From Hydrolagus colliei (taxonomy: Eukaryota), in the NCBI GenBank assembly GCA_035084275.1, contig CM068756.1, positions 4,526,001 through 4,590,000 of the forward strand: a stretch of DNA of 64,000 nt, in the 5' to 3' direction. Of this stretch, positions 15,601 through 64,000 are shown piece by piece; the first letter of the stretch is position 1, and each line of letters starts with the position of its first letter. A program made the position numbers and the translations under genes. The notes below the pieces were generated by a model that was given only the letters and a program-made list of their open reading frames with translations, searched no databases and was not told where the DNA came from.

Positions 15601-15719
15601 ACTCCACTTAAAGGAACTATATGTCATCAAACATGCATGGCAATATATTTCAGGAGGAAACTGAATTTAATTTTGGGCAACTTTCAAAAAATAAAACTGC
15701 GTCTGTATTTTCTCCACAG

Positions 15720-22907: not shown

Positions 22908-23216
22908 AGTCCTGTAGCTCAGTGTTAGAGCACTCGCCTTACAAGCGTGAGACCTGTGTGTGAATTCAGGCAGGTCAGAGTGAAACCTTGGGCAAATTTG
23001 CTTCCTCCAACAATAATCCCTAGGAAAAAAACACAATAGAAAAATTGGTAATTTCAATCCACAAATGTTTGTGGGATACTACTGTGCACAACTGGCTGCC
23101 ACATTTTGCCCAGAAATATACAGTCAATTCACTTTATAGTTTATTCTGTGAAGCGCTTTGGGGCGTCTCGAAGACGCGAAAAGCTCTACATCAAATGCAA
23201 GGATTATTATTATTAT
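22908..23216 (+). mobile_element. Full-length tRNA/Deu SINE
   Basis: Head GTCCTGTAGCTCAGTGTTAGAGC through tail GGATTATTATTATT. Confidence 0.9.
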
Positions 23217-23724: not shown

Positions 23725-25621
23725 AGCATATATTCAAGATATACATTTAATACATAAAACAACACTGCATTTTATCTTTAAGGTGATTTATGTATTCCAG
23801 AGATTATTTCCAGCTGCTAATTATCCTCTAGGTAAAGAAATACTTACTGGTGTCTGTCCTGAAATTGTCCTTTTCTGCCCTAAGCTTGTGTCCCTTCACT
23901 TAATAGAAAAAGAATATCTTATCCCACAAGTTCAATCTTTTACTGTGGTGCATGACAATACATCAGGAAGTAGATCCAATACATACATCTGATTCTACAG
24001 AATAAAAACATAAGCATGTGTGGTACAAGTATTTTCTATTATTAATCTAGTCGATATGTGGTCTGGATTTCAGACAGCAACATTCAGAATTATACTCCCT
24101 TTCCCTTCCTGCTCTTCTCTAACTTACTTTATGCTACCGAGAACTGGAACGGCAAATGAAATGGCTGAAGATAGCAAATTGGTGGTGTAGTCTCCACCTT
24201 ATGGAAGGGAAGGTTGAGCTGTGTTTTGCACTCCACCTGCTTTCTGCGCCCAAAACACATTGCTGAAACCACTGCCTGCCAACCATCCCCTGTATAACAT
24301 TTCCATTAAAAAAAACAATCATGTGTTTTATTGGCAGCTGCTCCCCTCGGGTTCTCATTTCCAGTAACTATCTGGGTGTAACTGCTTTCCAGCTTCTGTG
24401 CAAATATGTGACATCAATCCTGAAATCAATGTGTGGGTTTATGAAACTTGTTAATGCCCTGCTCCGCGCGGCACTTGTCTTCGACTCTAACGGCAGTTAT
24501 AATGATATCAGAACTGAATCAATTCTATTTGTCATATGAACGAGCTGGCAGAGTCATCATAGCCGCAATACACTTTCACTTCATGACTGGAAATAGCAGC
24601 ACCTCATTCTGGCTGATCACAAGTGTTGAAGCAAAGAGCAAAGGAAGCAGAGGGATGTGCAATTTCCATCTGAAATTCCACCGTTGTCTGTATGTTTGGA
24701 ATAATCCTCAGATTTGATCTTTGCATCTGAGGCGGATTTGGGGTTAAGAACATATATTTTTTGGGGGGGTCCTGTTTAGCGATCTTGGGCCTTGGGTCAG
24801 GTATTATACTGGAGCTCACAGAATCATAGAAATCACAGGACAGGAGGAGGCTTGAGATGATGCTCGCTCATCTTCCGGAGACAACTGTGCGAATTCCGAA
24901 ATCACTTTCCCCTTACAATTTATCAACCTGTTGTTGATACATCTGTTTAACTGCTGTTGTTGTTGTTGTTCATACCGCTCCTTTTATTAACCCTTTCTTT
25001 GCCAGGCAGAATCAATTCCCTGCAGACCCCCTGGACGGCCTCTTGGTGAGAGATAAAGTATCATGTTGTATTATTTAGAGGTACGGGTACTGCGTAGGAT
25101 GTTCCTGTTGTGGGCTAAAAGAATGGAATTCTCACTCAGCAAGCAGCCTGCAACATGAGCTGAAGTAAATCCGCCCTGGATGTTTTAGCTACATGATTTG
25201 AATATGGAGATATTGGATCACATTAATTAATATTTAATTGACATTTTAATTCAACGCAATTTCAAGCCAGACACGTTGGCTCTGCATTACAATACTCCAG
25301 GCTAAATGGGAATTGTAGGACTCCCAGCTGTCCAAACAGTTTAATCTGGTGCTGTCTATAAAGGAAGATTGATTTTGGATCTCTCCCAGTTACCTTGCAA
25401 CCATTTTTGCATTAACAAGTGATTACAACCGTAGATCCCTCTTATCCTTCTGACAAAAGTTTTCTGAATTGCAATTTGCAATATACAGCACATACTTTGC
25501 AATTGAAAGGAACTATACTTTAGCCTTTTTTTTGAGGTCCCTTTGTCATGCCCTGTTCAGTTCAACTCCCTATATCATTCACTGCTCAATCCACAGAGCT
25601 CTCTCTTATTATTCCCTCTTA

Positions 25622-37400: not shown

Positions 37401-37806
37401 CAGGGTGTTGCTGCTCATTTATTGGTAGGCCCGCCACGAGCAAAGGAAGACAATTTTCTTGCTGGGTTTCCCCATTAGAAATGAAGAGGGAGCGAGAGAA
37501 CGATACTCTTGCAGTATGAAATTAAATGAGTAACAAAATGACTTTCCACTCAGAGAGCCATCCACTAATTACAGATAGCCACCAGTATCAGAGACATTTA
37601 TAATCACAGAGCTGTCCCCTTCATTGCAACTCTTTTCTCACTAACAGAGGAGGCAAACTTGGAAATTATTTTTGGTGATTTTTTTGGGGGGAGGGGAATA
37701 GAACGTTTAAATAATAAAAATAAATTATCTGCTTATTGGTACACTGGGCAGCTGGGCTCTGATTTCAGATGATCTTATCATAAGACAAAGAGGATACTAT
37801 TAAATG

Positions 37807-38175
37807 ATAATAATAATCCTTGCATTCGATGTTGCTCTTGATCACGTTTTGGAGCTCTTCACAGAATATGCTGTAAAATGAATTGAATGTATATTTTAGT
37901 TGGAAAATGCGGCAGCCAGTTGAGCACAGCAGTGACCCACAAACAGTCTTGGATTGAGCGACCAAATTATTATTATTATTATTATTTATTATTTTGAGAG
38001 ATTATTTTCAGGCATGTGGAGTAAGGAAACTTGCCCAGGGTTTATGCCCAAACCCGGGCCTCTTGCTTGTGAGGCAAGTGCTCTAGTCACTGAGCTACAG
38101 GAAAACAACAACCACATTTTCAGAAAGCCTTTCAAGTCGGGAGGACATCCCAAGTTGCTGAACAGTCAGGACTCC
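37807..38175 (-). mobile_element. Full-length tRNA/Deu SINE with an L2 tail (38103-38166) inserted in its head
   Basis: Head ...GAGCTACAGGA | insert | CAGGACTCC; TSD CAGGA. Confidence 0.85.
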
Positions 38176-43312: not shown

Positions 43313-43613
43313 CTTCATATATTGTGGACTTTAATGTTTGCTGACCTTATTTTTCAACAGTTAATCTAACCCTCAAAGCGCTTCAGAGTTGAATAAATTT
43401 AATAACTGTGGGTGCTTTAAGGGATATTGCTTCTGCAGGAGAAACAGTTTTTGTTGTTTAGAAAATTGCAAGAGAACCTTGGTTTGCATTTAATCACCCT
43501 TCGCTTGATTCATCCCCAAAACACATTCATTACACTTTACAGTAGATTCTGTGGGGTACATTGAGATATTGTCCCGATGTGAAAGATGCTGTGTTAAATG
43601 TATGGATTATCAT

Positions 43614-43973
43614 GGAGTCCTGTAGCTCAGCGATTAGAGCACTCACCTTGCAAGCGAGAGACCTGGATTCGATTCCAGGCAGGGCGAAACTTTGGGTAAG
43701 TTTCCCTACTCCACACGTCTGATAATTCCTCAAAAAAATTTGTCATTGCAATCCACGACTGTTTGTGGGAACCTGCTGTGCACAATTGTCTGCTGCGTTT
43801 TGCCCCAAACGCAGCAGACAATTGTAGGTATATTCTGTGAAGCGCTTTGAGACATCTAGAAGACATGAAGTCACTATATCAAATGCAACAACAAAAAACA
43901 ACCAAATTACATTTATAGAGCGCCTTTTACATGGTGAGGCCATCCTAACTCGCTGCAAGGATTATTATTATTT
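43614..43973 (+). mobile_element. Full-length tRNA/Deu SINE with an antisense L2-type tail (43889-43953) inserted in its tail
   Basis: Cloverleaf-like head; TSD TGCAA at 43884-43888 and 43954-43958. Confidence 0.88.
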
Positions 43974-45300: not shown

Positions 45301-45725
45301 CTATGATTTTATAGACCAGACCTATAATTTGAGAGCCACGTAAATAGCTTCTTCTTTAAAGACTGGAATATAATAATCTTCCAACGAATACATTAACAAA
45401 GATAATGGAAGGGATTTAGGTGCAATTGTCAATCATTCACCCCAAGGTTTTGTGGCCAACCTGAAGCTACTGTTACCAAAAGTGAGGTTATTTGACAAAA
45501 AGTCAATCAGGCTAATTTTTAACATTAATAATCATATTTTTATATATTGTCAGTAATTTGGGGCATCCTATCTTCAAAAGGTTGGGCTATATAGTCTGTG
45601 GAGGAGGCAGGCTTAAAGGCTGGGTGTCCCTTGCTCATTACCTGCTTTTTTGTTAAGTCAACTAGCATCCAAATATTTTTTTCAATATTTAAGAAAATAT
45701 TTCTAGTCATGTCCCATCTCATCAT

Positions 45726-46021
45726 GTCCTGTAGTTCAGTGGTTAGAGCACTCGCCTCGCAAGCAAGAAACCTGGGTTCAATTCCAAATAGGGCGAAACC
45801 TTGGGTAAGTTTCCTTACTCCACACTATTGATAATAATCCCTCAAAAAAATACAATAATATGGTCACTTCAATTTACAACCTTTTGTGGAACACGGCTGT
45901 GCGCAATTGGCTGCCATGTTTCGCTCACATATATACTGTAGAGTCAATTCACTTTACAGTGAAGTGCTTTGAGACGTCTAGAAGATGTGAAAAGTGGTAA
46001 ATCAAATGTAAAGATTATTAT
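45726..46021 (+). mobile_element. Full-length tRNA/Deu SINE
   Basis: Family head, core and tail present. Confidence 0.9.
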
Positions 46022-46259
46022 CTTCTTGGATTTACACTGAGCAAAATAGCCAACACAAACTTTGACTGAACTGCAATAAGATGGAATGTGTGTGTGTTTT
46101 GTGGATAAGATCTTATTGTGCCATCTACTGGTGCAATGTGTGAATGCAACAACATTGAACTGCAAGTAAACAGACAAGTATTAAAGGTATTCAGTTCTGG
46201 ACATGCAATCACACACTACAAACAAAAGGCTTTACACAGACAAAGGAGCCACGGTAGTG

Positions 46260-48728
46260 CTTCAGATGTCCAATAGGACAATTTATTAGCATGCATAGCT
46301 CAAACTATTGTGTAGTGTGTCAATTCCTAATTGGAAATTAAGAATGACATTCACTTCAACTGTATGATCAGTCTCAGACATGATTAATCACTGAAGGCAG
46401 CCTTCAACTGAAAGAGTTGAAAGTTATTGGTCACTACAGTAGCTAAAGTCAGATGTATAAAAGTGCTGAATTCAAAACATAAATATGCTGAAATAGCCTC
46501 TACTTCATTTTGCAGAATCTATACAATGCAGTGCAAAAAGAGTGTAAAAATTGTGTTGTTTTTTGAACGAAAAATTAACAATCGTTTAGCACTGCTTTGT
46601 AGGGAGTTACTTATGTCATTGTTTATTCCACGGATCATCATAGTAAACACTGCTCTACTATATAAATAAATTAACAGCACCTTTTGAAAAAGTAAAAAAA
46701 AAGTCTTATATATCATAAAGTTGTAGGAAAGACACACGTGCAACGAAAGCAGAGATTTTCCACTATAGGAACAATCATGCAAACAACAAGGAGTTTCAGA
46801 GACTGATACATTATGTTTAATCTATACAGATGGAGACACCCACATGGGCACTAAACTTCATTAAAATGTAAGTCTTTTCAGAAATCTTTAGAAAATATTT
46901 GCACTCTACAAACTGTGTAGATACAATAATGTGTGTTTTTTTTATTGAACTTAGTGATGTAGCACATATCTTCTGGAAGAAATAAGGTCGAGTGATGTTA
47001 AAAATATTCCACAACATACTTGTAAAATGGCTACAAAGGCATTGTAGGTAACAGTCCACAAACGTAATATTTGGTCAGTAACAAGTTTTGACCCACATGA
47101 GAGAAGATAAATCTGCCCGGCAGTATTGTATTTAAGAGGCTTGATTTGTGACAGTGTGTTCTCATTACCCACAGTCTTTTGTTTCCCAGCAATACGCATG
47201 CAATGAGTTGATTAGTTCTCGGTTGGACGAGCCACGTAGGAAAGGGAAGGAGGTGAGAAAAAAAGAGGGAAGGACACAGTTGATTCATATCATCCAATAG
47301 TACATCTCTCAACAAACCATGTACAATCACTTCTTCACTCTCCAGCATTTTTCCTCCCACCAAGATTTTAAAAATCCTGACAATGCAAGACCTTTTTTTT
47401 AAAAAAATGGAAATTGCCAGATTGGTGAAGGTTAGGAATCATTTACATTTTAAGTACAGATTAGAGCGTGTGTCTGGCATGTTTAATGGTTTAGTCAAGT
47501 GCATTACAGAAATGAGCTTTCCCTACAAAAATATCTCAATACCAAAGGAAAGCCACCAAACCCAAGACACACTGGGACCTACAGACTTTGTGAAGTAAAA
47601 TTCAACTGTTCAAACCAAATTATATTTCCTTAAAGTCCTTTAACTTGCCAATTTTAGATCCAGTTTTAGCTTAGCAAAGTTACAATAATCCAAACACTGA
47701 CATGCTGGAAGTACATTTAGCTATTCAGTTTTAGCACTGGCCTTAGACCAAAGACCTACTAATAAATACACAAATAAATTAAAAAAATTATGGATCTTCC
47801 TACAGGTAGTTTGAAAGCACTGAGAAATAAAGAGTGTGAAGAACTAAACAGTTTTCAGGAATATGAGTAAACAAGCTTGCAGAAGTTAATTTAAAAACTA
47901 CGCTGTCCCCATTGGGGCACCTTTCAGCATTTCAGTAGTACTCAACCATTAGTATTTTTGTGGGGGGAAAAAAGTTACTGTTTCAGTATTTACTTTGGAG
48001 TGGTTTCTAGCATCTATGACTACAACTATATACAAATATTGAATGATTAGGCTCAACACCACCCATGTCTATCAATCACAGCAGAGTCTGCCATATACAG
48101 TAATTAAAACGTTTCCAGGATGCCAAAATAAGCTTTGAAATTCATGATCAGTTTGGTTATTTTTAATGGTAGTGAAACCCTGCCGATTATAAACCGGGCA
48201 AAAAGAGGATGTGGCCTGATTGATGGTTTCTTGAGAAATGGAAAAAATATAAAAGGACACATGAAATTCTGATTGATCTAACATAAATATCTGCACTAAG
48301 TTCATTTACGGAGGCCACATCAACTTAAAACAAATCTAAATCAGGTTCAAGCAATGGTCGGGACTGTCGGTAGTAGTATTTTCAAAATAATTACAAATTG
48401 AGTTTTGCAATAAACTTATTGAGGGAATCTGCTGACATATACTGTCTATTTTCTGCAAATGAGAAAGTACATTCCTATAATGCACTGCATATGAAATTGC
48501 AGGTGAATCTGTTTTAAAATGTCTAGCTTCAGAAGGAATGAGATTTGAAAGTTTCTCCATCGAGGGGGATTTCAAACAATTTAGTAAGTTGGAAATTTGA
48601 CCACCAGAAACCAATATTGTGTTTTCATGATTGTTTCAAAGCTGTACAGCAAGATGTCCAAAAGATGTAGGTAGTTTGTGCCAAACTTCTGATCACACAT
48701 TGAGAATACAGTGTCAAGGTGCAAAAAC
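46260..48728 (-). other. ZFPM1: Probable ZFPM1 3' UTR
   Basis: No recognisable repeats, U-rich on minus strand; minus-strand AATAAA at 46282-46287, 46622-46627 and 46941-46946. End is inferred. Confidence 0.5.
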
Positions 48729-51250
48729 TCATTTAACATGTTCTGAAGTGTGAGAAGAACAGTAATACTTCTTGTGAGCTATGAAGGTGGACAAACTGCT
48801 GAATTTGATGTTGCACAAGCGACAGAATCTGTGGTTTCCATTCTGCACAGGGCTTGGGAGAGACATTGCTGTCTGAACAGATTTGTCTACATTAACGGGT
48901 GAGATGGGCAATTTGTCCACATTAACGGGTGGGACGGGTGATTTGGAGCCTGGATCTGTGGGAACATCAGGCACAGGGGAGATTTTCACAACTTTAGGGG
49001 AGGCAGTCAGTATAGGTTTAAGAGACATGTTCTGCAACGGGTTTTCACTCGATGACTGGGGTGAGACAGATTCTCTTTGATCTTTGGCATTCAAGATGTT
49101 CTTCTGAATCTGAGTGCCTGGCTGAAGAGATGAGGCAGGAATTTTAGAATTGTGAGGGCTGCTTTCAGAAATATTGTTTGTCTGGTGTTTGCCTTGTGAT
49201 GGAGTGTCCATCATATTGCTCTCGGCTGTATGCCCAGTTGAAGTCTGTTTGGTCAACAGCAAGCCATGAACAAGTTTAAAATGTTCAATAAGGTCTCCTT
49301 CAATAGGTCCATTAAGTGGACAGTAAGGGCAAACTACTGGAGTACGTTGGGGTGCTGGGAAGGACTTAATGTGAGGGGACAACTGAGGTCTATCTTGCAA
49401 AACCTCTGCACTGTAGTGATATACTCCTGGAGAATTATTTGGAGTAATATACGGATGGGCCAAGTGTGGACTTTCTGGAACACATTTAGCATTTACATTT
49501 TTTTTGTTCAATTCCTCGGATTGCATAGGAGGGTCTGCAACATCCGTCTTGTTGCTCTTTCTGGGTTTCACTGAAGCAGTGGCTTGTATCTTTCCTCTGG
49601 CAAGATGTTCCACGTTACTGTGCAGAACTGCCGTAGCGGGGCAATAGTACTTCTTATGGGCAAGGTAGTTTTCGACATTGTTGAAACTGATTTTGCAGGA
49701 GGTACATTCATGATAGTCCGTCAAAATATTGGGGGCTGGAACTAATGGTGGAGTGTGGACTTTTCCAGGGTCTTCCTGAATGCGGGATTTTTTGCTGAGA
49801 TCAATGGGTCCATCTACATCCGAACTGGAGCCCGGCGATGAAGTTGCACTAGATCGAGTTAACATGTAACCCGTTGACACAGAGAGAGCATCAGTAGACT
49901 TTGAAGAGATCGGCAAAGATTCTTGCTTTATTTTTACAGCTTCTGCATTGTTGGGCAGCCCGCTGCTTTGAAGCACGGCCGCTGAAGGGCTTTGGATGGA
50001 CACTTCATTTGCAGGAGGTGGGGGCAGGGGCTGATGTCCGACGCTGTGGATCTCATACAACTTTCTACGTTTGCGAGTGCGTACGTTTTGCTGGAGGAAT
50101 GGCACTTTCCCACTGTTTGGCCTTCGAAGAGGAGGGTCGTGTCTGGAAGCACAGTAGAAACGCTTGTGCACCACATAGGTTTCATGTCGGGTGAACCTTA
50201 TATTGCAAGCTTCACACACAGTCCTGTTGGGGTCGTCTTCGGAGTCGTCGAGGGAGTTGCTTGGACTCTGGCTACCTTCACTGACTCTACTGAGGCTGTC
50301 TCCTTCGGACGAGGTGTCCTTTGTGACATTCTCCTCCGTTTTGATTTCCGGCGGTTTAACGTCTACATTTGCTTCTGGATCAGTCTGAGAAGATGAAGCC
50401 AGCTGAGTTTCGACGACGAGAGGTGCTGGACTAGGAGACTCCTGGTCAGCAATGTTGGGAGGTGCTGAGTGTTTGGTAGACTCAACAGTGGTGTTGTCTG
50501 GCTGCTGGTGCCTGCTGGAACAATACAGCCGTTTGTGTACCAAGTAGTTGTTGACGTTATTGAACGTAATGTCACACTCGTAGCAGGTTGCTCCTTTTTG
50601 AATGGGGGCACCCGCATAAAGCAGCGGGTAATTATTCACCCCTTGCTTCAGTCTGCTGTGAACCAACTCCGACATTTTGGCTAGGATTTCTGAAGCTTGT
50701 GGAAACGTGGAAGTTTCGTGATTGAACATGTACGGTATTAACACGGTTCCTTCCGGCATCACCGAGGCTGCCCCATAATGGACCGGACTGGAGGCCGGTG
50801 TCGGGCTTGAGCGCTCAGACTTCACTTTGACCACAGGCGTGCTCCTCGGAGACGAGGCGCTGGAGGAATTATCAGTGGTCGGATTTGCCGGACCTTCCAC
50901 GGTCTTCTCACTCTCACTCTCACATTGGGAATGTACACCTCTCTGAGGCTCCTCTTTGATTTTCACAGCTCGAATGACTTCCTCAGGAACTTCTTTTCTG
51001 GAAGCTGGAGTGCCCCGCTCATCTGTGCCCTTTGCTTCCTCTGTACTGTGCTGAGATTCACTAGCTTGGTGTCCCTCCATGTGCTTGGCTAGCTCAGTTG
51101 TGCTTCTCAAATGCCTGTGGCATTGACTGCACTGGAGTGCACCTTGTACGAGATGCAGTGAGCTGTGCTGCTGCAAGCTTGATTCGGAATCACCAACGAA
51201 CTCGCACTTGCTGCACTTCAGGCTTGCGGAAGGATCTGCGACCTGCAAAC
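48729..51250 (-). CDS. ZFPM1: ZFPM1/FOG1 last coding exon (seven zinc fingers, PIDLS CtBP motif, RKRRK NLS)
   Basis: Acceptor catctcag|GT (phase 1). PQASEILAKMSELVHSRL; CCHC fingers CYEC, CEAC, CTSC, CRLC; C2H2 CPYC...HFKLVH (FOG1-type); PIDLS at 49794-49808; ends EHVK*. Confidence 0.96.
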
Positions 51251-51453
51251 CTGAGATGAACAGAGATAAAATAAAATAAACTAAATGTTGATGCTAAAAT
51301 TGTTTTTTGCAATGAACATGAAGCACACACGCATCTGTCTCTTATAAAGTATTTCTTGTTAGTTACATTCACTCTACGAACAAAAATGGTGATTTGCACA
51401 GAAAATGCAGTATGTATACAAGACACATGCCACAGTGTGCTTCTCTTTCTTAC

Positions 51454-51582
51454 CTGATAAAGGAGGGACAAGGGAGTATAAGTCACCCTTTGCACCTGGC
51501 TGGCAGGCCATGTGATTGGTAACCAGATGAGTGTACAGGATTTCTCTTGTGGTTGCGACAAATCCACAGCCCTGACAAACAC
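51454..51582 (-). CDS. ZFPM1: ZFPM1 exon, ZF4 (GVCQGCGFVATTREILYTHLVTNHMACQPGAKGDLYS)
   Basis: 129 nt, phase 1-1, acacag| and |GTAAGA. Confidence 0.95.
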
Positions 51583-51797
51583 CTGTGTCAAACCACACCA
51601 CAATAATCTTAGTGCTGTCTGTTTGTCATCCACTCTCTCACACCTAGATCTTTGAGGAGCGAGGGGCACATCATCACCCCACCCATTCATCTCAGGATTG
51701 CCTCCTGCACTAAAATAAGATGATTCACCTAATAAACTGGCAAATCATGAGCCTATTGGCGGATTTGCTGGGAGAACAAGGATAAAGCAATATAACC

Positions 51798-52121
51798 ATT
51801 TCCACTCGTGGGTGAATCTGTGACTCGTGGTCACAGATTTAAAATAGTTTCAAGGCGAAGTAGAGGGGAGCTGAGGAGAAATTTTTTCACTCAGCGAGTT
51901 GTTCGAATCTGGAATGCATTGCCTGAAAAGGTGGTGGAGGCTGATTCGATAACAACTTTTAAAAGGGAATTAGATCTTTATTTAGGGAGAACGGGTTTAT
52001 TAGGCTATGGGGAGCGGGCAGGGCAGTGGGATTGAATCGCTCTTTTCAAAGAGCCGGCACAGACTAGATGGGCCGAATGGCCTCCTTTTGTGCCGTAAAA
52101 TTCTATGATTCTATGATTCTA
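51798..52121 (+). mobile_element. Young 5'-truncated CR1 LINE
   Basis: FPLVGESVTRGHRFKIVSRRSRGELRRNFFTQRVVRIWNALP...GYGERAGQWD*, (ATTCTATG)n tail, apparent TSD TAACCA. Confidence 0.93.
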
Positions 52122-52274
52122 ACCAGTATATTAGGACTTAATGGCTCATCAAATCACCTAGAATTCCTTACTGATACCTAAAAAGATCTATTATGTTAGC
52201 AATCTGGGTTAATAATCCTAATATATTATTACTGGGTAATTACAGTAGGTGGCAGAATGGGCTCAATAATAGGA

Positions 52275-52470
52275 TGATTCAATACCACAGCAAAGAAACA
52301 GGCCATTTGGCCCATCTGGCATTTTTCTCCATGTGAGTAATCCAATCTAATTTCAATCTCCTGCTTGTCGCACATATCCTTTAATACTCCTCTTTTCAAG
52401 TGTCCATGTAAAAGAATCTCTAGATTGATGATTTGTGGAATGGAATTCCACATTCCAACCCTCCTTGATG
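52275..52470 (-). mobile_element. Old CR1 3' fragment
   Basis: AGGCCATTTGGCCCATC 3' motif; minus frame RRVGMWNSIP. Confidence 0.6.
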
Positions 52471-54926
52471 CATATACTGTAGCAAAGTCTACACAGTACA
52501 GTAAGAAACATCCGTCTCTAAAGTTATTTATATTGCACTGCACTCATTACATTGGCATTCTCGCCTTTCATATTTGCAGTCAGGGTTGCTATTTGAGAGC
52601 CCACTGAACGTTTGAGATACAGTTAAAGCAGCTGACTTATTGCTTAGAGATTCTGAGAACTTTTTAATCGATTCAATCTATATAACATTGCCAACTGATT
52701 TTTTTTTTGTCCTTGGACTTTTATCTGAAGGAGCACATTGGGATGTAGACTATCCTTACCTCTTCTCAGTCTCCAGTGATGACTGAACATACTATTCTGG
52801 CCCATCCATCTTAGTGACATGGTAATAAAACTAACAAATTCTGTCTGGGTCTCAAATCACCCCCTCGTAGTCCAACAGAGGGAATGAATGCCAAATTTTT
52901 CGACACATGAAAATCCATCATCATGTTAAAGAGTATCAAAACCCAAAAGAGTTCAAAAGATGCAAATGTAAACCTCCACTCAATGAAACTACTTACATTT
53001 CCATCAGAGTTTCCGTTGTCTATCATAACTAGCAATAGTAAAATTCTAGTTGTATTAAAATTAAATACCTCTCACTTTTAAATTCTTAAATTCCTAATAG
53101 TCTCACCCCTGTTTCAACCGAAACCCTGGCTCATGTATAACAAAAACTTGCACCACCAAGAGTAGTGTGGAGGGCGCCATATAATGTACAAATTGTGCAG
53201 TAAAAAAGTATTTGACAGTGTTTTTATAGCTGCAAAAAGAATCTCTTGCAAATAACTGGATATGCACATCTGTTGTAGCATGTGTTACATTGATCACCTT
53301 GAGGAACCTCTTCTGTGATGCACTCGGGAGTAGATCACACTGAGGGGAAGGCCCGCAGATCATTTGCTCACTTGCAAGAATTACTGGACACAAGCATAAA
53401 TGTTCTCTAACCAACATATCCAGCAATTTTGGTTGTATTGCAAAATCCCATAACTAAGTGCAGACTGCCTACAAACGACAGTGACTAAACTTTACACAAA
53501 CTCTTGTGAAGTGCTTGAAGTCATTAGGAGGGATAAGGCACAATACATAGAGCAATTAAAATGTGGTTCCTGCGCTGAGACGATGCATTTTCCCATCACA
53601 CCAATAGACTGCACTAGGTAATTGGGCAAAGGTCCAAGATGTGAGAGTAATCCCAGCACTTGATACATAGCAGGAAACTAGGTCAGGCTCATTCCTCACA
53701 CTGGCCAATGAATAAATGCAACTGAAGTAAAGCCGTCTTTTTACCCTAGGGTAAAACTGACTAAATCCACTGTCGTTTCAATCCTGGTGAACAGAGGAGA
53801 GACTGCATATGACTTTAAACATACATGTGCACAACTCTCCGTCCTCTGAGCACAAAGATAACACTGGCTCAGTAAATCCTCACTGTCTTCAACCCTGCAG
53901 CTTATATTTTAAAAAAAGCACTACCTTTCCCAGACAATTCATTTTGAGAAGACTAACTGCTGCGGCTAATGTTATGTGGAGATTCAGTCGATAGCAACTT
54001 TGCTGATTTCTACATCCGCAGCTTGGCACTAGCAACAACGCTTTGTGTGACAATTTAGGACAACTGTCAAAAGTGGGGCAGTGGGTGGTTATTTGGGGGC
54101 AAAGTGGGGGATAGGCAAAATGACAGAATATTAGACCTTACCATGTATGAATGAAGACATCAACAAATCAATGACGAACACTACAATCTCCAGCTTCCAG
54201 GCACATGTGGTATATATGGAACCTTTCCAAGGTAAACCAGCAATTCTCAGTCAATAAATTCATCATTTGTGCACATGTAATCACTTCATCTCAAACATGT
54301 GTTCAGAATACTCCAGGCCATCTCTCCCGACTTTATGCAATATAAACAGTGATACTGCATTGAACTATTAAGATTCCTTAGAGCCAAATGCTTCTAGAAA
54401 GTGCTGTTCTAAAAAGCTTTTGATCGAAGACAGAGCTGTTGTTTTGGTCAGGAAATTCAATGCCACCCAACACTCAAACTTGGGCAAAAGCTTCCAAGGC
54501 TTTTAGACATAAGAAGTCCAATTACATATATACAAGTGATGCAGAATGTTCCCACAAAAAGCCTGTGATTTTAACTTACTAGAAACATGGTACTCTGTGT
54601 TTTTTTAAAAAAAACACTATTTCCATAGGATTTAATTAGGAGAAAACTAGACAGTAACTGATCACAATATTTGTATGATTTTCTTCTTATTTTCAGTCCT
54701 TAATCTCAACCGAGTGTATCAGAGACTGGTAAATACTGATTAGCACTGGTATCTGAGTATTTGCTTAGTGACTGAAGAGAAGTACATTTAAGGGGACCAA
54801 TGAGCCAAATAGTGCCCTATATTCTGAACAAGTCACTACACGAGTAAGCAGTATATTAGACATGGGATAGATTACAAACTAAGAGTGCCTTACAGCTGAA
54901 ATCTTGGGGTTTAAAAAATAAATTAC

Positions 54927-55022
54927 CATTCAGTGAGTCCGTGTGTACTTTCAGGTGTCGTTCACAGTTTGCCTTTGTTGTAAACGCTGACAGACAGATT
55001 AGACACACAAAAGGCCTTTCAC
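54927..55022 (-). CDS. ZFPM1: ZFPM1 exon, ZF3 (GERPFVCLICLSAFTTKANCERHLKVHTDSLN)
   Basis: 96 nt, phase 1-1, gctcag| and |GTAATT; FOG1-diagnostic sequence. Confidence 0.96.
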
Positions 55023-57001
55023 CTGAGCACAATAAGATAACATACATCAGTCTGAAAATTAGGGTGGATGATTAAAAACTGAAAATGATTATTCTGTGGG
55101 AGGATTGGGGGGGAAAGCGACAATGCAGATGACTCTGTACCCACCACCTCTGCCTATTCACTCTCTATTTAAATGAAGATAGTGTGGTGAATGAGCAGGT
55201 GAATGAGCCAATAGGTACCTTGACATCCTGGGCAGTGTACAAATTAGTCACTTTGTGCTAGAATAAGGTGTGCTTACATTGTAGGAGTTCTGCTGAACAG
55301 TTCCAGATCTTTGGTGAGGGAAGACTGCTCTTTCTACAATTGGGAGCATGGAAAAAACCAACTTCAATCACAGCCCATAAAATGGGACACTGCTTCATAA
55401 TGGCAACAAATGAATAAAGGCACAAGCTCTATCTATCAAGAGCGCCTTGTAACAGTGTTACCCTGAACTTTTGGCTGGTGAAGCTTTTCTCAAATGTTTT
55501 CTCACCATCAGGAGTTCCGTGGCATTTCCCCCGGGCTAGGGCCGAAGGTGATTGTGGCAACGTTTGCTACATTGATTGCTATCAACTAATCTCAGCAGAT
55601 TCAAACCTGCAACTTTCTAGTTTGCAACCTTCATACTGCACTGGCCAGGACGGTACGGCCTCTACCCACGAGGCTGTTAACAATTAAGTAAATGCAAAAT
55701 GCCACATAGTGTTCAAAAAAAGTAAAGCCTTTCAAATGGAATTTATCTTGAATTACAGAGCACAAAAATGCACTGGATCAAGGCAACGGAACAGAAACTG
55801 ATTTAAAAATAAATACAACGGTATATATAAAAAAAAGTTTCAATCTTGCAGCAGTGGTAAATAATTTCAACTTGGAATCGCTATCACAGCAGAAAATGTC
55901 ACTGATAATCAGATTAAATTCCAACTGAATCACAGGTACATTGTGTAGGCGCATGAATCATAGGAGTAGATTGTAAAACTGTTTTCTATTAACTTTTAGA
56001 ATCACACACAAAGCTTTTAGTAAAGTACAGGTTTTAGCATCTGGATTGACACCACATTACATTCATGATCTGGGTACTGGGTACCATATATACTTTTGAA
56101 TGATAAAGATATCAGTCATTTATAACAGGGACATTGCAAAAAAAAAGTTCCAAACATGTTTCGCTCAATGGTCTTTCCCCAGTAAAGAAAGTGTACACAT
56201 AATACTTCAATGGGTACATTGCGAGCATCCCTCTAAATCTGTCTCTACCTGAACTTTTAAACATTTGACTACATTTACATGGCTTTTGCATACAGGCAGA
56301 GGAGATTCTCAACCAAAAAAGGTCAACACCACACAATGTGACTTTTTGTACAGAAAGATGTAATGGAAAGCAGTAAGGCAAGAATTAGATTTTTACTCTT
56401 GGACAAAAGTAGATTAAATCACTACACGCACCACTATCATTCATAAAGTGCTGGTTTTTTTTTACAGTGAAACTTCAGAATTGCAGAATGTGTACGCATC
56501 CACCCACATACAAATTCTGAGAAATTTGATTTCAAATCATTGATTATTCATGCATGTTGAGACCATTTGCACTCTGGGAGAGATCAGATCAAATTGCTCT
56601 CGGCTGCTCAGGTAGGAACTTTTGCTCCCTATTAACTGCACAATTTATTTGCTCTGGATCGATTTGAAGGATGAGCATTTGGATTAATTCAGGCTTTGAA
56701 TTCAGCCTCACGGAAATTCTGATTATCCAAAACTCAATTTGAATGGTTTAAACAAAATCGAATAAACCCAAGTTCAAAGACAAAAATTTCAATACAACAA
56801 TTAATTGGTTACAAGCGGATCAATAAGCTCTCGCCGACAGATACATACCAGGCATGGAATCAGATACCTCCACCGCCCACCCCTATTGACTACCACAACA
56901 ATGGTTGTTAGATACTAAATCCTTCTTTCAGCTGTGACAGAGATACAATTCAGTACAAATTAGCCACAAACCGATAAATGACAGGGTTATGATCTCCTGT
57001 T

Positions 57002-57333
57002 TCATAGAATCATAGAATTTTACGGCACAAAAGGAGGCCATTCGGCCCATCTAGTCTGTGCCGGCTCTTTGAAAAGAGCGATTCAATCCCACTGCCCTGC
57101 CCGCTCCCCATAGCCTAATAGACCCGTTCTCCCTAAATAAAGATCTAATTCCCTTTTAAAAGTTGTTATCGAATCAGCCTCCACCACCTTTTCAGGCAAT
57201 GCATTCCAGATTCGAACAACTCGCTGAGTGAAAAAATTTCTCCTCAGCTCCCCTCTACTGCGCCTTGAAACTATTTTAAATCTGTGACCACGAGTCACAG
57301 ATTCACCCACGAGTGGAAATAGTTTTTCTCTAT
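57002..57333 (-). mobile_element. Young 5'-truncated CR1 LINE, near-identical inverse of the 51798 copy
   Basis: Same translated ORF in the track (57083-57310); 2 mismatches in 319 bp by manual comparison. Confidence 0.93.
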
Positions 57334-57594
57334 TTGAGTTTGCAGAAATTGTGAAGTATGTTCAAATGGAAGAATCTTCCAACCTGGACTAAACTACAAA
57401 TTATCAAAATATCCATACACTGGGTGAATTAAGTGCAATGTTTTAAGAAAAAGTTTCCATTTACCCTTGTTGTTTACCAATTCGACATAGCTAAATTCAC
57501 TACAAGATGTTGGCTAGTGATTATTTTCATACTTTTTGTATCATTTCAAAGCTGAATTTGCTGATTTATGGAAACATTTACCAGAGTATAATTA

Positions 57595-57790
57595 ATATCA
57601 GAAGAGTTATAGGTTTAAACACCAAATATGAATTTAGGAAGTTTTGCTTTAGCCAGAGGGTAATTAATGACTGGAAAAAGTTGCCAGGAAGAGTGTTGAG
57701 GCCAAAATACTGGACCCAAACCAATCTTGTGATGTTTGAAGCATTGGTAGCTTTAAGGGACAGGTGGGCCAGTATTAATGGACATCCAGG
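57595..57790 (+). mobile_element. Old CR1 3' fragment
   Basis: FRKFCFSQRVINDWKKLPGRV resembles the CR1 ORF2 end. Confidence 0.6.
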
Positions 57791-59392
57791 ACTTTTGAAA
57801 GAATTCTAAAAAAAAATCCTCGATTCACAAAAGTTTTCTTTGTAATTTTCAGCCTTTTTTTAAAAAAAAAGAGTTGTTCTCGTAATTTTTTTGTACCAAA
57901 TTTCTATTGACATGAATATCAAAAAAAAAATTTTTTCTCTGAACGTCTATCTCCCACCTTCTCCCGCTGTAGGAAGCAGACACATGTGCACGTCCAAATT
58001 GTCCCTCAAACAGCCAAAGAATTATTCCAAATGCTTTTCATTAAACTGATTAGAAAAATGAACACTCCAGCAGCCCAACCAAACAATAGCACAGAAACAG
58101 AGCAAGATTTCATCTTAGATGGCCAACATGATACCTTATAATAACGATATAATTTAAATTATAGCCCCTCCCTACCTCCCTCCCTTCCTCCCTGATTTGG
58201 TTACCTACTCAAAGAATTCCAGTAGATTAGTAGAGCACAACTTATTGCTTGTAAAACTATTCTGTCTTGTTCCCGTGGTCTCTGCACTCTTTAGACTAAC
58301 GTTGATAATATCTCACAAATGCTTTTAGGCATTTTACACACTACTGTATTCAATGCCCACACTACTTGCTTTGTGGAACATTGAAAGTGATGGTAACTTT
58401 GGCCAAGTTTTCTTGAGGACCATCACTCAGACGCAGTCTATTATAGTTCGGGCGGTTTAACGACCCGGGGGATTCATAACACAAGATGTCTCTGCCTTTG
58501 AGGAGCACATGTGGGGTATAACACCACGGACATTCTTTCTGGACAGTTTCATGGATACTCAACTCTTCAGATGTGATCTTCAGACTTTCCTCACCTCCCC
58601 TCACTCACCGACTCTGTGTCAAACTACACCAATGTGAGAAGCGCTAGTCGCTGTTGTTGTTACTAATAAGAGGTTGAGAGAAGATCAGCAAATCTATAGC
58701 CACCTAAAGAGAGGGCACTATTTTGTAACTTCAAGTTGACCGGAGCCAGGAGAAAAGGCACCAGTATAAATCCCCACCAGGAAGCCATCTCAGGCAACCT
58801 CACTTTATATTCGTTCATGTGAATATCCATTAAACTGCAATAGCCATTCAATGTGGGCCAAATACCGTCCCAATATAATACATTTTGAGACAAACTGAGG
58901 TTCTATGATATTTTGTATCATACCAGAACATAACTATCTTAACCACATTTTTTGTTGTGTATATAATGTCCTATTATAAAAACGTGCTAAAGATCTCATG
59001 CGAGGACATCAATAGAATTAGCAACCGTTTGGAACAAGTGTTTTTTATGCTGCTGAGGATCAAGGCTGTTTCGCTTACTGCCTCTAATGTTATCGTTGTG
59101 TGTCGAGAACAGAATTATAGTCAATCAATATCCTCAATGAGAGTTATCCTTCCACCTTCTATTAATATAGTGAAGTCAATTTGCATTATCCAATTATTTT
59201 AGTTTCGGTTTCCAGGTGTGAAACAGTGGTGCACAATATACTGATTCCTATACAATGTAGCCTTGCTATAATGGAGCAGAAGTGAGATGAAAAATGGAAT
59301 CCGTCCAATAAAATAATCAGAAACGACAGCACAAAAAAAACAGGATCTAGTCCACAAAGCTGTTAAAGGTGTAGATGTGAGGGACATCTTAC

Positions 59393-59617
59393 CGCTATGG
59401 CTACGCATGTGAATTTCCAGAGAGCTGGCGCTGGGGCAACTTTTGTTGCACTGCGGGAAAGAGCAGATGCGTTCGTGCGGTGATGGTTCCTTGGGTTTCT
59501 CCTCTGTGGGAATAGACAAGGGTTTTTGTCGGCTCGCACAGTAATACATCAGGTGAGCTTGCAGATTCCGTTCGCTTCTGTACCAGATCCCACAGGATTT
59601 ACAAGGAAAAATGTCCT
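59393..59617 (-). CDS. ZFPM1: ZFPM1 exon, ZF1 (CCHC) and ZF2 (C2H2)
   Basis: KDIFPCKSCGIWYRSERNLQAHLMYYCASRQ...CSFPQCNKSCPSASSLEIHMRSHS; 225 nt, ttttcag| and |GTAAGA. Confidence 0.96.
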
Positions 59618-60509
59618 CTGAAAAACAAATTTGAAAAAACAAATTCAGAAAAGATTCTGTAACAGGGTGAAAAAACACAACGTGCACAACATTTCACGAG
59701 AAAGTAGATGAGAACAGGGCGCTGGCTTAAACCTTAAGACTTTCTCCTCCCGGTATAATTTATGCTCCAATTTAAATAGGAAGGAAGGGCTGGGTTAAGT
59801 ATTGTGCTTTTGAATCTGAGGTTTAATAGACCTCGCTTTGAATGGATCCCAGGGAAACACAACAGGCCCACAAGACTGAGAAGATGTCAACACAACTAAT
59901 GCTGGAAGATACCAATTGTTCAAAAAATAAAGTGGCGGTGGAGGGTGTTATGTACTGAAAGGCTGCGACGTCAGCCCAGCCCTTTCTTCTCCTTCAAAGG
60001 TTTTCAAAATTCTAAAAGGACTAACATTGTGGTTAACATTCTCTCAGTGTGTTTCATGCGGAAAAGCAGAAATAAAACAGATGCCAACTTATTGGCTTGT
60101 TCAATCTGCTTGGTTAGTATAACTCTTGCAATAAAAAAAAGGGGCCTTACATAGGGAGGGAAGCTGAGAGACTCTCAAACATTAATTCAGTTTACTTGTC
60201 ATAGGAATCTTCCTTTTTGTAGAATGTGAACACACCTACCCCCTTTCTAGGTCACTCCAGTTACCAATTGCCTGGGAATCAATCAGCACGGAGGCACCAA
60301 TAAAAATGAGACCCATTCTAAATGTTAAAGCCACAGACTGCTTTCCCACTGTGCGATAGCACGACAGTCTTTTAACAGTCTGGTCATCTTAGCCTTTACC
60401 ACCAAATTACAACAATGATTAAAGCTCAAAAAAAAGCGCAACTAGGAAGATGTTTTTAACATCGCAATAGTTAATGAGACCTAGTTTTTCTTGAAGCACT
60501 GGAACTTAC

Positions 60510-60755
60510 TGTTGACAACAGCAGTTGCTAAAATGGCAGCCATCCCAGCCTGCTGAGGGAGAAGCTGGATGTCGGAATGTAAAGTGGCTGGGTACATGGC
60601 TGAGGGGTCAGAGATCTCTGCGGGTTCCACCAGCTCAGTTTTAACACTGTGGTTTGACTTCGGGGACTTGCTGGTCTGATCCGGAGTGACAATAATTGCA
60701 GTTAAGTTCTCCCCCTCTGCGATGGGCTTTGTCGTTTTACACCAAATCTGGTCAC
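60510..60755 (-). CDS. ZFPM1: ZFPM1 exon, end of PR-like domain to LLPQQAGMAAILATAVVN (upstream exons outside window)
   Basis: 246 nt, tgtgcag| and |GTAAGT; phase matches the next exon. Confidence 0.94.
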
Positions 60756-63158
60756 CTGCACAGGGGAATAACACATTCATTATTAAATTATCAATTGTTC
60801 CATTACACCATGGGATGCAATAAAGGCAATCTCTTCTTAGATAATGGTAGACTGTGGCCAATCACAGAGGGCTAGTAACATTTATTCTGCACGTTTAGTT
60901 TTAAATCATAGCCCTAATTTAGCAGGAAGTGTTACCAAACCCCATGTCACATTGTGAATTTGATAATAATTATACAAATAAAAACAATAAATATGTTTCA
61001 AGGACCTTCAGAATCTCTTGTCCAAATGTGAAATGCAACAAGGTGAATGGGGCAAACACTGCCGTGGATCATTCACTTACTGAACAAAGTGAGAGCTATA
61101 GCAAACATCTCCGCTTCCATTAATAAGCAATTATTGTTGATTTGAGGTCATCGTAGTATCAATGTTAAGTTTGTAAAAATTATGATTAATTTATAAATAA
61201 TTCTACAAAAATAGTGCAATACCAGAACGAAGATACCAAAGCAATCATTCTCTACAGCACCAGAAAAAGACAGTAACATTCGGTAAAAACACACAGCTTT
61301 CTTCTGCGGTCTTAAGTAGCTGCTTTGCAGATAGTTCGGAGTAACCCACATGACGGTTTAGGCTCGAACACGTGAAAACAGAAACTATTACTAGGACCAT
61401 CAGCTCAGAGCCAATTGACTTGCAACAAAAGGTGAATCGGTATACCGAATGATGAGCTCATCAAAGATTTTCAAGTGATTTGCAAGGATTAATACAACAA
61501 CTTTGATTTATATAGTGTCCTCCACGCCGGACGGTGTCTCAGAGCGTTTTAAATTATTATTGTGGTAAGAGAAGTACAGGCACCATCATTCCCAGAAAAA
61601 ATAAACTCAAATCATTTTAGAAATAAAAAGAAACACTTCTGATTATGGGTTTAACACTGCCCTCTCTCTGAATGTCATATGCAGTAAGGTAGATCAGTCA
61701 CTGGAGTGCGATGTTCACTCACTGAACAAGTAATAAGATAAAACGAATACGTTTTTAAAGTGAGGAACGTGAATTTAGATAGCATCACAGAGTAAACAGA
61801 TTACAGATGACCTTGTGAAGTTTGTTCAGGTTTCCACTTCAGCATTATTGGATGAACGGAGGTTTAAGCATCCAGGTACCTCTGACAAACCTGGTTATCA
61901 TGATATCCTTCCAGTTTTCCTCCAAAAAGGGTAATAAACTGAAAAGCTGATGCATATCTGTTATCAAGATAGGCATTGCGTATTTGGAGTTCAAAGATTG
62001 GAAATGAACAAATGGAATATCACAGTAGTTGAAAGAATCATTTAGGGTCCATATAATGAATCTTTTCAATTTGAAGAGCCTTTTAAAGAACAGAGCACTT
62101 TTCTGTACATAACTAGGGCATCCAGTTCTGTCTGAGATGAAACATTTGGGCACTAGGTGTCTCTCTCAAGTCAACACATGAAGCACAAACTCTGACAGGC
62201 CTTCTTCTCTCCGTATCTCCTTCTGCACTAATAGATGTTGTGCTGAATGTACATGAACGTGGCTGACCATCGCGAAACTCCAGGAGGCGGGGAAACCAGG
62301 CTATCTTGGTCAGTGAGGAGTTATTCGGATAATGGCCGAACTCCTTTGCTCCTGACAGTACAAAACACAGCATTAAGAATATCTAGGGTGTTCCCAAAAG
62401 CAGTCTCCTTCTAAAGAGGATATGTAGAAAATTCATCTGGTCAATAGGAAGTGCTTAAATATCACAGGCAGCTAGCTGTGCCTGCAGAGGAAACTGCTGG
62501 CTTGTAAACCATGAACACACTTCAAAGGCATCAGCAGTGAATGATTTTACTTCCAACACAATAGCACCACAATCTGCAGTATTTCAACAGTAAGTGGAGA
62601 AGATTTCCCTGTACAGAGTTCACTCGTGCCACTTGATGTATGAAATTGACTCACTTGGGCTTGACAAGCTGCTCTCCTCATAAATAAAATGCACTGGATC
62701 TTCTGCAACACCCTTCACATCTTCAATAACTAAATCCTATAAACTTATAAGTTTATAAGACCAATTGGCCCTGGTCAACGATCAATGAGGATGGAATCAA
62801 CAACAACTTGCATTTACATAGTGCCCTCCATTTGGGAGTAATGTCTCTGATCGTTTTAGATCTGTGGTGGTGACTGATACCAAGGAGGGGAAAGGAGACT
62901 GAAGCCATGGTCATAGAAGTAAGTGTATATGTATTAGGGGCAGGTGGGTGAGAAAAGGATTTCTATGAGGAGTGTCAGCAAGCAAGGCTGAGAGGAGACT
63001 ATTTTCTTTACTATTTACACTATCAACAACAACATTGATTTATATAGCGCCCTCCACGCCAGACGACACTACTCATCTCGGAGAGAACATTCAGCTCACA
63101 TGGCTAACATGAGAAAAACAAAAACCCTGAAGAGTTCACGTCTCACTATTTCCCCCTC

Positions 63159-63415
63159 ATGCAAATAAATGTTATTGTGGTACTTCTAAGGTAATCACTA
63201 CCACACAGTGACATAACCACATTGGTTACTAACCACAAAGGATTTACATTGACAAATCATTATCACCCCAATCTACCAGGCAGCTCACTATTATCACAGC
63301 TCGGTGGTTGCATCTTTGGATTGAAAAAGCACTAAACAGGAGAGAACAAAAACCTTATTTGATTATGATAAACAATTCTTAGAAAAGTCCACCTGTATCC
63401 TGACTTTTACACGTG
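63159..63415. promoter_or_regulatory. Candidate intronic haematopoietic enhancer of ZFPM1
   Basis: ATGCAAAT 63159; TGTGGT/ACCACA at 63176, 63200, 63216, 63232; TTATCA/TGATAA at 63260, 63291, 63366; CACGTG 63410. Confidence 0.5.
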
Positions 63416-63556
63416 AAAGAAAATGCAGAAACGCAATACAACGCAAGCAATGTTTAAATTTTTTTAATATCTTGCTTGAAACAGTGTAGACTAATTTTGT
63501 GTTCCGTTTGGAAAAAAGTCCATCTTAAATCCCTTGTATTTGTCTGTGACAGAGTT

Positions 63557-63690
63557 ATAATAACAATCCTTGCATATGATATAGCGCCTTATCACGTCTT
63601 AGAGACGTCTCAAAGCGATTCACAGAATATACTGTAAGGTGAATTGACCGTACGTTTTGTGGGTAAAATGTGGTCGCTAATTTGCTGTGA
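63557..63690 (-). mobile_element. SINE 3' half
   Basis: Reverse complement of the family tail and part of the core. Similar tail scraps lie near 10250, 12960, 20815, 31860, 40830 and 42170. Confidence 0.8.
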
Positions 63691-64000
63691 AGTCTAGTGT
63701 CAGTGCATCTGTAAACGAACACTGCAGCCAATGTTCAAACAGCCGTGAGGTGAATGACCAGTTTTATCAAAGCTCTCTCAAGACTCACACTCTCTCTGCA
63801 AGTTACTGAAAGCCCTGGGCCCAGCTGCGTGAGCACTGCTTGAGCAGCATCATTTGATTTCCCCTATCAATGTGTCTACTTCCTCATTTAAAACTCATGT
63901 GCAAATTTTACTGAAATGGGTAAAGAGCCAATTCAACTGCTTCACACATTGGGTTAGTGGATCACAGAGGCTGGAGTCTATCATCATATTTTGGGATCAG

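Follow-up and report, generated by a model that had tools for sequence, protein, structure and literature searches.

A near-identical inverted pair of CR1 fragments around the ZF3 cassette exon of ZFPM1 in a holocephalan

Results

The window analysed here, a stretch of 64,000 nucleotides from a holocephalan, carries ZFPM1 (FOG-1) in minus-strand orientation. The exons of interest are the ZF1-ZF2 exon at 59393..59617 (-), the ZF3 exon at 54927..55022 (-), the ZF4 exon at 51454..51582 (-; 129 nt) and the last coding exon at 48729..51250 (-), which matched ZFPM1 of Callorhinchus milii at 91% and that of sharks and rays at 63-71%. The exon at 60511-60753 had no PDB match, and an Rfam scan of 48000-64000 returned none either. 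The ZF3 exon, 96 nt long with AG/GT ends, was 100% identical to that of C. milii and matched ZFPM1 entry 1srk_A with an E value of 3.4e-15. It is a frame-preserving cassette: its skipping takes the reading frame from 990 to 958 codons with one stop in each case. We take its finger to be the TACC3-binding finger of FOG-1.

In the two introns on either side of this exon, positions 51798-52116 (+) aligned with the reverse complement of 57002-57320 over 319 nt with no gaps and two mismatches (A/C at 51858, T/C at 51997), which corresponds to 99.4% identity (arm-versus-arm blastn E value 1.7e-162). The realignment thus reproduced the gapless 319-bp pair with two mismatches described in an earlier note on this DNA. 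The arms are separated by 4885 nt. Of the 116 inverted pairs that the window contains, theirs is the longest, followed by one of 164 nt at 80%. The right copy lies 1979 nt from the ZF3 exon and 2057 nt from the donor of the ZF1-ZF2 exon, the upstream partner in a skip; the left copy lies about 2.8 kb from the ZF3 exon and 216 nt from the ZF4 acceptor, which is pyrimidine-poor (50%). The inverted arms lie in the two flanking introns of a single ZFPM1 pre-mRNA, as in exon-looping retroelement pairs of the TBXT type.

Judged from their sequence features, both arms are 5'-truncated 3' ends of CR1 LINEs. The left fragment (51799..52119 (+), about 320 nt, antisense in the ZFPM1 pre-mRNA) comprises 78 open ORF2 codons, a stop at 52033 and a 3' UTR hairpin. 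Its peptide was 57-60% identical to the C-termini of reverse transcriptase-bearing or related proteins, and the frame stays open until the stop where the homologues end. When the ORF2 C-terminus was compared with non-LTR reverse transcriptase proteins, 7 of 131 candidates matched (E values down to 2e-23, 49-61% identity); PF00078 was present in four of these seven, two had an endonuclease domain as well, and none was named CR1. A Pfam search with the CR1 peptide gave no match. The stubs contain no RT domain, the part whose phylogeny separates CR1 from L2 and Rex/Babar. The hairpin had a folding energy of −31.2 kcal/mol (z −3.87), and none of 200 shuffles was equally stable. On its 3' side, the octamer ATTCTATG, presumably the CR1 octamer, is repeated in tandem, with two and a half units in the left tail and two in the right. 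A 3' UTR hairpin and an octamer tail are part of the definition of CR1 (PMC4316615, in excerpt).

The right fragment (57002..57335 (-), 334 nt, sense in the pre-mRNA) extends 15 nt further 5', to 57335, so that the elements do not share a 5' end. A local duplication, inferred from co-terminal ends, was dropped on account of these extra nucleotides. Truncation points only 15 nt apart are somewhat coincidental for independent insertions. The left element is bordered by a TAACCA target-site duplication at 51793..51798 (+) and 52120..52125 (+), the first two letters of the 3' copy also extending the tail; the probability of such a match by chance was about 0.006 with 20 offsets allowed. The corresponding search around the right copy gave a chance-level 4-mer only. 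An old CR1 3' remnant of 53 nt (74%) is found at 52265..52317 (-). The assignment to CR1 put forward earlier is supported by these features, and the position given there, in the introns around the 96-nt in-frame ZF3 exon, proved right.

Sequencing data were drawn from X1, possibly the source sample, from X4, another sample of the same species from another study, and from a species B, about 1.5% diverged, represented by DNA (X6) and by an RNA run (X19) of which 27% was read. The junction check covered three of the four junctions, the left 5' junction being outside the examined stretch. The left 3', right 3' and right 5' junctions were located inside unique contigs of both X1 and X4 at a single-copy depth of about 50. 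In X6, neither a junction-crossing contig nor an empty site was present among the matches listed (8 pieces). As for the 5' truncation, loose ends at 57336 agreed at 0.85-1.0, and the family extends further 5' in X1, X4, X6 and X19. A local deletion was weighed as the source of the joints 52113-57002 and 52110-57001 but rejected, since the interval is at full depth (about 50) and, of the 23 linker letters, the first 13 do not occur in the window; we read these joints as tail-to-tail pairs elsewhere in the genome.

Between 26,822 and 34,668 contigs were placed per DNA run, and in X1 at least 514 contigs ran from the tail into unrelated flanks (four rows among the matches listed). Converted to copies, the summed depth gives 1,300 to 55,000, which indicates an order of magnitude only, because depth summed in this way does not count copies. 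No sister copy turned up in a metagenome scan. The CR1 family of these stubs has at least hundreds of copies and, therefore, a few such inverted pairs are expected by chance: 0.7, 4.6 and 68 opposite pairs within 5.2 kb for 500, 1300 and 5000 copies, respectively. If copies of at least 99% identity numbered some hundreds only, so close a pair would be rare.

The arms are predicted to pair in the minus-strand pre-mRNA and to beat competing folds, with a net energy in silico of about −435 kcal/mol for the 319-bp duplex versus −46 kcal/mol for the best competitor. The sole competing partner for the left arm among the matches listed was the old remnant. The two arms contain 84 and 91 adenosines. 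The duplex would close a 4.9-kb loop and, given its predicted stability, A-to-I editing in part of the transcripts is to be expected; we regard duplex formation together with editing as likely. Chicken CR1 stubs, with a mean length of 334 bp, are heavily edited, and 200,171 hyper-editing sites were counted in elephant shark brain, 81% of them in a column that we read as repeats (PMC5625713, in excerpt). The letter changes in X19 (A>G 10, T>C 10, C>T 25, G>A 15) came from many copies mixed.

Discussion

Skipping of the ZF3 exon is an old cassette event. It predates the CR1 pair, because the annotations of 9 of 12 other cartilaginous fish species include isoforms with exactly this skip, as do those of a turtle and two frogs. 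Since ZF3 is already an alternative exon, the duplex would at most raise an existing skip rate, and skip reads alone are therefore no sign of a CR1 effect. Only a shift in ZF3 skipping against an empty-allele control would show one. The earlier note had proposed that the repeats could pair and loop out ZF3, with editing as a check: a stable duplex is indeed predicted and editing is likely, but the skipping itself is older than the pair. In the RNA of species B, exon bins were at a depth of 0.7-4.2, with no splice joint among the matches listed. The duplex probably raises ZF3 skipping a little, and a rise of more than 10 points is doubtful. Most likely, the pair is tolerated as a passenger and has not been selected as a switch.

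A switch resembling that of TBXT, in which the duplex would loop out ZF3 and raise a ZF3-less FOG-1 isoform in the lineage, is unlikely in our view, even though several observations are compatible with it. The duplex is near-perfect and has no real competitor, and pairing would cut the path from the ZF1-ZF2 donor to the ZF4 acceptor to 2273 nt, compared to 4370 nt to the ZF3 acceptor. ZF3 is short and frame-preserving and is known as an alternative exon, and the three junctions, unbroken in two samples, fit a high frequency. Of 8 reporters, 7 showed less skipping after Alu deletion, the drop ranging from about 1 to more than 40 points (PMC13019944, in excerpt). FOG1 is kept in the cytoplasm by TACC3 (PMC11101173, in excerpt). 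If ZF3 is the finger bound by TACC3, less of it could reduce cytoplasmic FOG-1 retention in blood precursors. However, the span is 4.9 kb versus 1448 bp in TBXT, where a 4188-bp pair gave a minor isoform only, according to the excerpted source. The arms lie 2-2.8 kb from ZF3, whereas enrichment grows with proximity in the excerpted literature, and ZF3 skipping occurs without the CR1 pair. That a non-primate, TBXT-like switch arose from two LINE stubs, markedly raised skipping of the old cassette, shifted the ratio of FOG-1 isoforms with and without the putative TACC3-binding finger in the blood precursors of this chimaera and reached high frequency soon after insertion is accordingly a prospect on which we would not count.

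The arrangement resembles the hominoid TBXT pair (PMC10901737, in excerpt) at longer range. As in the AluY-AluSx1 loop-out of TBXT exon 6, inverted retroelements of about 300 bp flank an exon whose loss keeps the frame in a developmental transcription regulator, with both arms distant from the splice sites. In length and identity, the CR1 pair resembles the engineered perfect 297-bp version; in mouse Tbxt, the skipping obtained with this inverted insert exceeded that of the Alu pair. Unlike in TBXT, the arms are CR1 stubs and not Alu elements, both are young, they lie 4.9 kb and not 1448 bp apart, relatives already splice the exon alternatively, and the pair is known from sequence alone. Genome-wide skipping by inverted Alus (PMC13019027 and PMC13019944, in excerpt) likewise involves repeats straddling a short skippable exon within 5 kb; its effects are statistical and often small, and primate SINEs have many competitors, whereas the CR1 pair is single and dominant. 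In element class and length (about 320 and 334 bp versus 334 bp in chicken), the arms correspond to the CR1 3' stubs described as SINE-like ADAR substrates (PMC5625713, in excerpt), but they are almost perfectly matched and their editing is a prediction. Heavy 5' truncation, an ORF2 end, the hairpin and the octamer tail are shared with the CR1 clade LINEs described in the excerpted PMC4316615, from which this holocephalan subfamily differs in its host lineage.

Taken as a whole, the locus is probably best explained by two independent recent CR1 insertions that lie opposite each other by chance and are tolerated as a passenger. Two separate, very young insertions are the preferred reading of the arms because their 5' ends and tails differ, one has a 6-bp duplication, the mismatches are synonymous and the CpGs are intact. 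The two mismatches (CGA/CGC and TTA/CTA) leave the ORF2 peptide unchanged; three mutation models of neutral decay give this outcome a P of 0.03-0.08. All 12 CpGs are common to both arms, and CpG observed/expected is about 0.8 in the arms against 0.31 in the inter-arm sequence. The insertions are dated by divergence alone: a pair older than the split from species B should show at least 4.9 differences, whereas two were seen (P 0.13; P 0.02 for the lack of any non-synonymous or UTR change), and the insertions would probably be later than this split. On this view, a CR1 subfamily that is active, or was until recently, would have retrotransposed twice by target-primed reverse transcription, each time from a slightly different source element, leaving stubs roughly 320 and 334 nt long whose opposite orientation around the ZF3 exon is fortuitous.

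Alternatively, the near-identity could be local, produced by gene conversion, template switching or retrotransposition of ZFPM1 pre-mRNA. The 64 kb contain just these two young copies, which do lie 4.9 kb apart with truncations 15 nt from each other, but the differing ends and tails, the left copy's own target-site duplication, and the fact that neither site's flank was copied to the other site make such an origin improbable. Moreover, homogenised old copies should share decay, whereas synonymous differences and intact CpGs are observed here. For the two-insertion reading, near-identity reflects youth within a high-copy family rather than special maintenance.

An action at the DNA level, with the 4.9-kb segment inverted through recombination of the arms and ZF3 thereby lost from the transcript, or a circRNA of ZF3, is very improbable. 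Arms of 319 bp at 99.4% identity are in the range able to support ectopic recombination, but the ZF3 exon is in sense in the assembly. Inverted repeats do flank circRNAs, whose single-exon medians are 169-253 nt (PMC6376117, in excerpt). At 96 nt, ZF3 is not a long exon and lies far below these medians, which describe a tendency and no strict limit; the back-splicing suggested in the earlier note is thereby disfavoured, and both a ZF3 circRNA and an inversion are unsupported.

The same note had named an assembly artefact in one copy as a refuting outcome; such an artefact, a misplaced or consensus-polished duplicate, is hardly credible and largely refuted because, near-identity itself and the left 5' junction outside the examined stretch notwithstanding, three of four junctions recur in unique raw-data contigs of two independent samples from two studies, with distinct element ends and a target-site duplication.

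If the pair shifts ZF3 inclusion, loop-out skipping would extend from primate Alus to CR1 stubs and to cartilaginous fish, and the locus would offer a clean natural test, in which a single dominant pair of 99.4% identity spans 4.9 kb and a close relative can serve as control. A literature search returned no paper on exon skipping by inverted CR1 elements, its sole match being unrelated insect work. Without such a shift, it would count among several chance pairs in a genome rich in CR1. The ZF3 exon of FOG-1 itself looks like a cassette retained from chimaeras to turtles and frogs; a search at the level of titles found no paper on it. The conservation of this cassette in FOG-1 may matter more than the pair itself.

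The inverted pair and its setting

Self-comparison of the window bore out the inverted match described in the earlier note: 51798-52116 (+) aligned with the reverse complement of 57002-57320 over 319 nt, without gaps and with mismatches at 51858 and 51997, and ranked far above the rest of the 116 inverted pairs in the window (runner-up 164 nt at 80%). Both arms are 3'-terminal fragments of non-LTR retrotransposons, with an open ORF2 C-terminus 49-61% identical to seven proteins, four of which carry an RT domain. Their 81-nt 3' region holds a hairpin (z −3.87) and a tail octamer, which we take to be the CR1 octamer. On this anatomy, namely the ORF2 end, truncation, hairpin and octamer, the arms are assigned to CR1, as that note had it. 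Truncation, hairpin and octamer are reported as CR1 hallmarks (PMC4316615). A sensitive search of the 64 kb detected no third young CR1 copy, remnants only. Decayed older CR1-like fragments lie at 17167-17432, 23810-23896, 57495-57749 and 52265-52317 (the last 53 nt, 74%).

The exon map of ZFPM1 (FOG-1), on the minus strand, comprised the ZF1-2 exon (59617-59393), the ZF3 exon (55022-54927), the ZF4 exon (51582-51454) and the last coding exon (51250-48729), the latter matching the ZFPM1 of Callorhinchus milii at 91% identity and that of sharks and rays at 63-71%, which makes the host a holocephalan. It agreed with the proposal that ZF3 is a 96-nt in-frame exon with CR1 arms in both flanking introns; the reading frame is preserved when the exon is omitted, and its peptide matches PDB 1srk_A, which carries the name ZFPM1. 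Upstream of ZF3, 1979 nt separate its acceptor from the right copy; downstream, the left copy begins about 2.8 kb beyond the ZF3 donor and comes within 216 nt of the ZF4 acceptor. Because of this last, short distance, ZF4 may be affected too. The ZF4 exon encodes 43 aa (48 in C. milii) and its acceptor is poor in pyrimidines; C. milii isoforms X4 and X5 omit ZF4, singly or together with ZF3. The antisense left copy contributes two pyrimidine-rich AG sites (52005 and 51923, minus), and 51768 (minus), about 25 nt past its end, is the most pyrimidine-rich of the intron's 116 YAG sites; all three are possible cryptic acceptors. The last exon opens (51250-51070, minus) with two more C2H2-like fingers beyond ZF4, an arrangement known from ZFPM2 but not known from mammalian ZFPM1.

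Elsewhere in the window there are copies, in both orientations, of an older SINE family whose members measure about 300 bp and start with a tRNA-like head (3727-4049, 15286-15595, 21706-21928, 22908-23209, 37795-38110, 43613-43888, 45726-46023); they are 68-83% alike, and for the head at 45725-45796 ARAGORN gave tRNA-Ala. Convergent with ZFPM1 is a GPCR gene of the rhodopsin family in two exons (7tm_1; 13571-14410 and 15612-16142, +), which resembles a TRH receptor.

Reality, age and origin of the copies

Contigs of four runs were placed on 52060-60900, a stretch that leaves the left 5' junction outside: X1 (DNA, possibly the assembly's own source), X4 (DNA of the same species, from another sample and study), and X6 (DNA) and X19 (RNA) from species B, a relative. 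Unique X1 and X4 contigs at a depth of about 50 began inside the left tail (52096), finished inside the right tail (57026) and began inside the right 5' end (57308). Three of the four junctions thus have double support, which largely disposes of an assembly artefact. Since no contig broke there, no empty allele was visible in either sample, although rare variants are lost from contigs. The two CR1 copies, young and facing each other across an older cassette exon, are real. ZF3 stands in sense orientation in the assembly; an inversion between the arms would leave the junction words identical, and contigs are blind to it.

The ends of the copies differ. At its 5' end the right one is 15 nt longer, reaching 57335; each of the four runs has loose ends at 57336, which indicate that the CR1 family continues 5' there. 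The tail is longer in the left copy, which has TAACCA on both sides (51793-51798 and 52120-52125; probability by chance about 0.006); at the right copy the best candidate duplication was a 4-mer at chance level. Neither mismatch changes the ORF2 protein (P 0.03-0.08 if decay were neutral), each copy retains all 12 CpGs, and CpG observed/expected is about 0.8 in the arms versus 0.31 in the interval between. From these sequences we infer that the source elements were two, differing slightly, and that decay after insertion was near zero. Among the pieces listed for species B, 72 of 4657 sites (1.5%) depart from the window. Had the pair predated the split, at least 4.9 differing sites would be expected, versus 2 observed (P 0.13), and the lack of any non-synonymous or UTR change would have P 0.02. 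This favours, without proving, insertion after the split; none of the species B contigs listed crosses a junction. At 57925-57930, an A-run/T-run junction, six A read T in X4 (three in species B), which suggests a shifted boundary or micro-inversion. At 53240-53829 species B depth falls to 7-11, where X1 and X4 stay at about 50; an indel or divergent haplotype is a possible cause.

The pair is beyond chance as sequence similarity, but probably not as an arrangement. Between 26,822 and 34,668 contigs per DNA run fell on 52060-60900, and at least 514 X1 contigs, from the four tail entries listed, led from the CR1 tail into unrelated flanks. Random placement of 500, 1300 or 5000 copies in 0.95 Gb would on average put 0.7, 4.6 or 68 pairs on opposite strands within 5.2 kb of each other. 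Contigs tailed by CR1 at both ends (joints 52113-57002 and 52110-57001), one with just 23 letters between, suggest further tail-to-tail pairs elsewhere in the genome. Similar arm lengths are ordinary for CR1, as chicken stubs reportedly average 334 bp (PMC5625713). Conversion or local copying as the source of the pair is quite improbable; it keeps some weight because the truncation points are close together and because so close a pair would be rare if copies at 99% or better numbered only some hundreds.

Predicted consequences for the ZFPM1 transcript

The predicted duplex reaches −634 kcal/mol, or about −435 once self-folding of the arms and the cost of the loop are subtracted, and the single competitor among those listed reaches −46 kcal/mol. 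Hyper-editing is described as acting mainly on long, almost perfectly paired duplexes between inverted repeats that lie close together, chicken CR1 as heavily edited, and elephant shark brain as having 200,171 hyper-editing sites (PMC5625713). By this analogy, editing of the duplexed arms in pre-mRNA is likely. Back-splicing of ZF3 alone, also envisaged earlier, is disfavoured: reported medians for single-exon circRNAs are 169-253 nt (PMC6376117), which makes a 96-nt exon unfavourable for circle formation.

An exact ZF3 skip occurs in 9 of 40 ZFPM1 proteins from four cartilaginous-fish clusters, one each in 9 of 12 species (isoform X3 in C. milii), and in 4 of the 120 representatives listed (catshark, a turtle, two frogs), where 97 have ZF2, ZF3 and ZF4 and 19 fall in other classes; these isoforms are annotations, mostly predicted. 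With a nearly invariant exon sequence (54927-55022) and annotated exact skips from chimaera to turtle and frogs (P0132, P0016, P0086, P0103, P0109), ZF3 looks like an ancient alternative exon, on which no paper stood among the search results listed. Since ZF3 is, on these annotations, already a cassette exon, the young pair cannot have created the skipped isoform, and skip reads would not implicate it. Of the idea that the pair loops out ZF3, the geometry stands; the pair as origin of a skip that is annotated in 9 of 12 cartilaginous fish species does not.

The pair could still raise the skip level, because ZF3 is a short exon of alternative use and because pairing would draw the ZF4 acceptor closer to the upstream donor (2273 nt, versus 4370 nt for the ZF3 acceptor). 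The closest known case is the hominoid AluY-AluSx1 pair that loops out TBXT exon 6, which ours resembles in geometry. There, the effective pair is reported to span 1448 bp, a 4188-bp pair yielded a minor isoform only, and a perfect 297-bp insert exceeded the Alu pair in effect (PMC10901737). Of 8 reporters tested by Alu deletion, 7 reportedly showed less skipping, the drop ranging from about 1 to more than 40 points (PMC13019944). Effects are described as larger with nearer inverted pairs. Overall, such pairs were judged no major contributor to skipping (PMC13019027). We consider it unlikely that the CR1 pair shifts ZF3 skipping by more than 10 points. ZF3 may be the TACC3-binding finger of FOG1. 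One report has TACC3 holding FOG1 in the cytoplasm (PMC11101173), the significance of which another deems unclear (PMC11913303). If ZF3 does bind TACC3, a shift of more than 10 points would matter, given this reported cytoplasmic retention.
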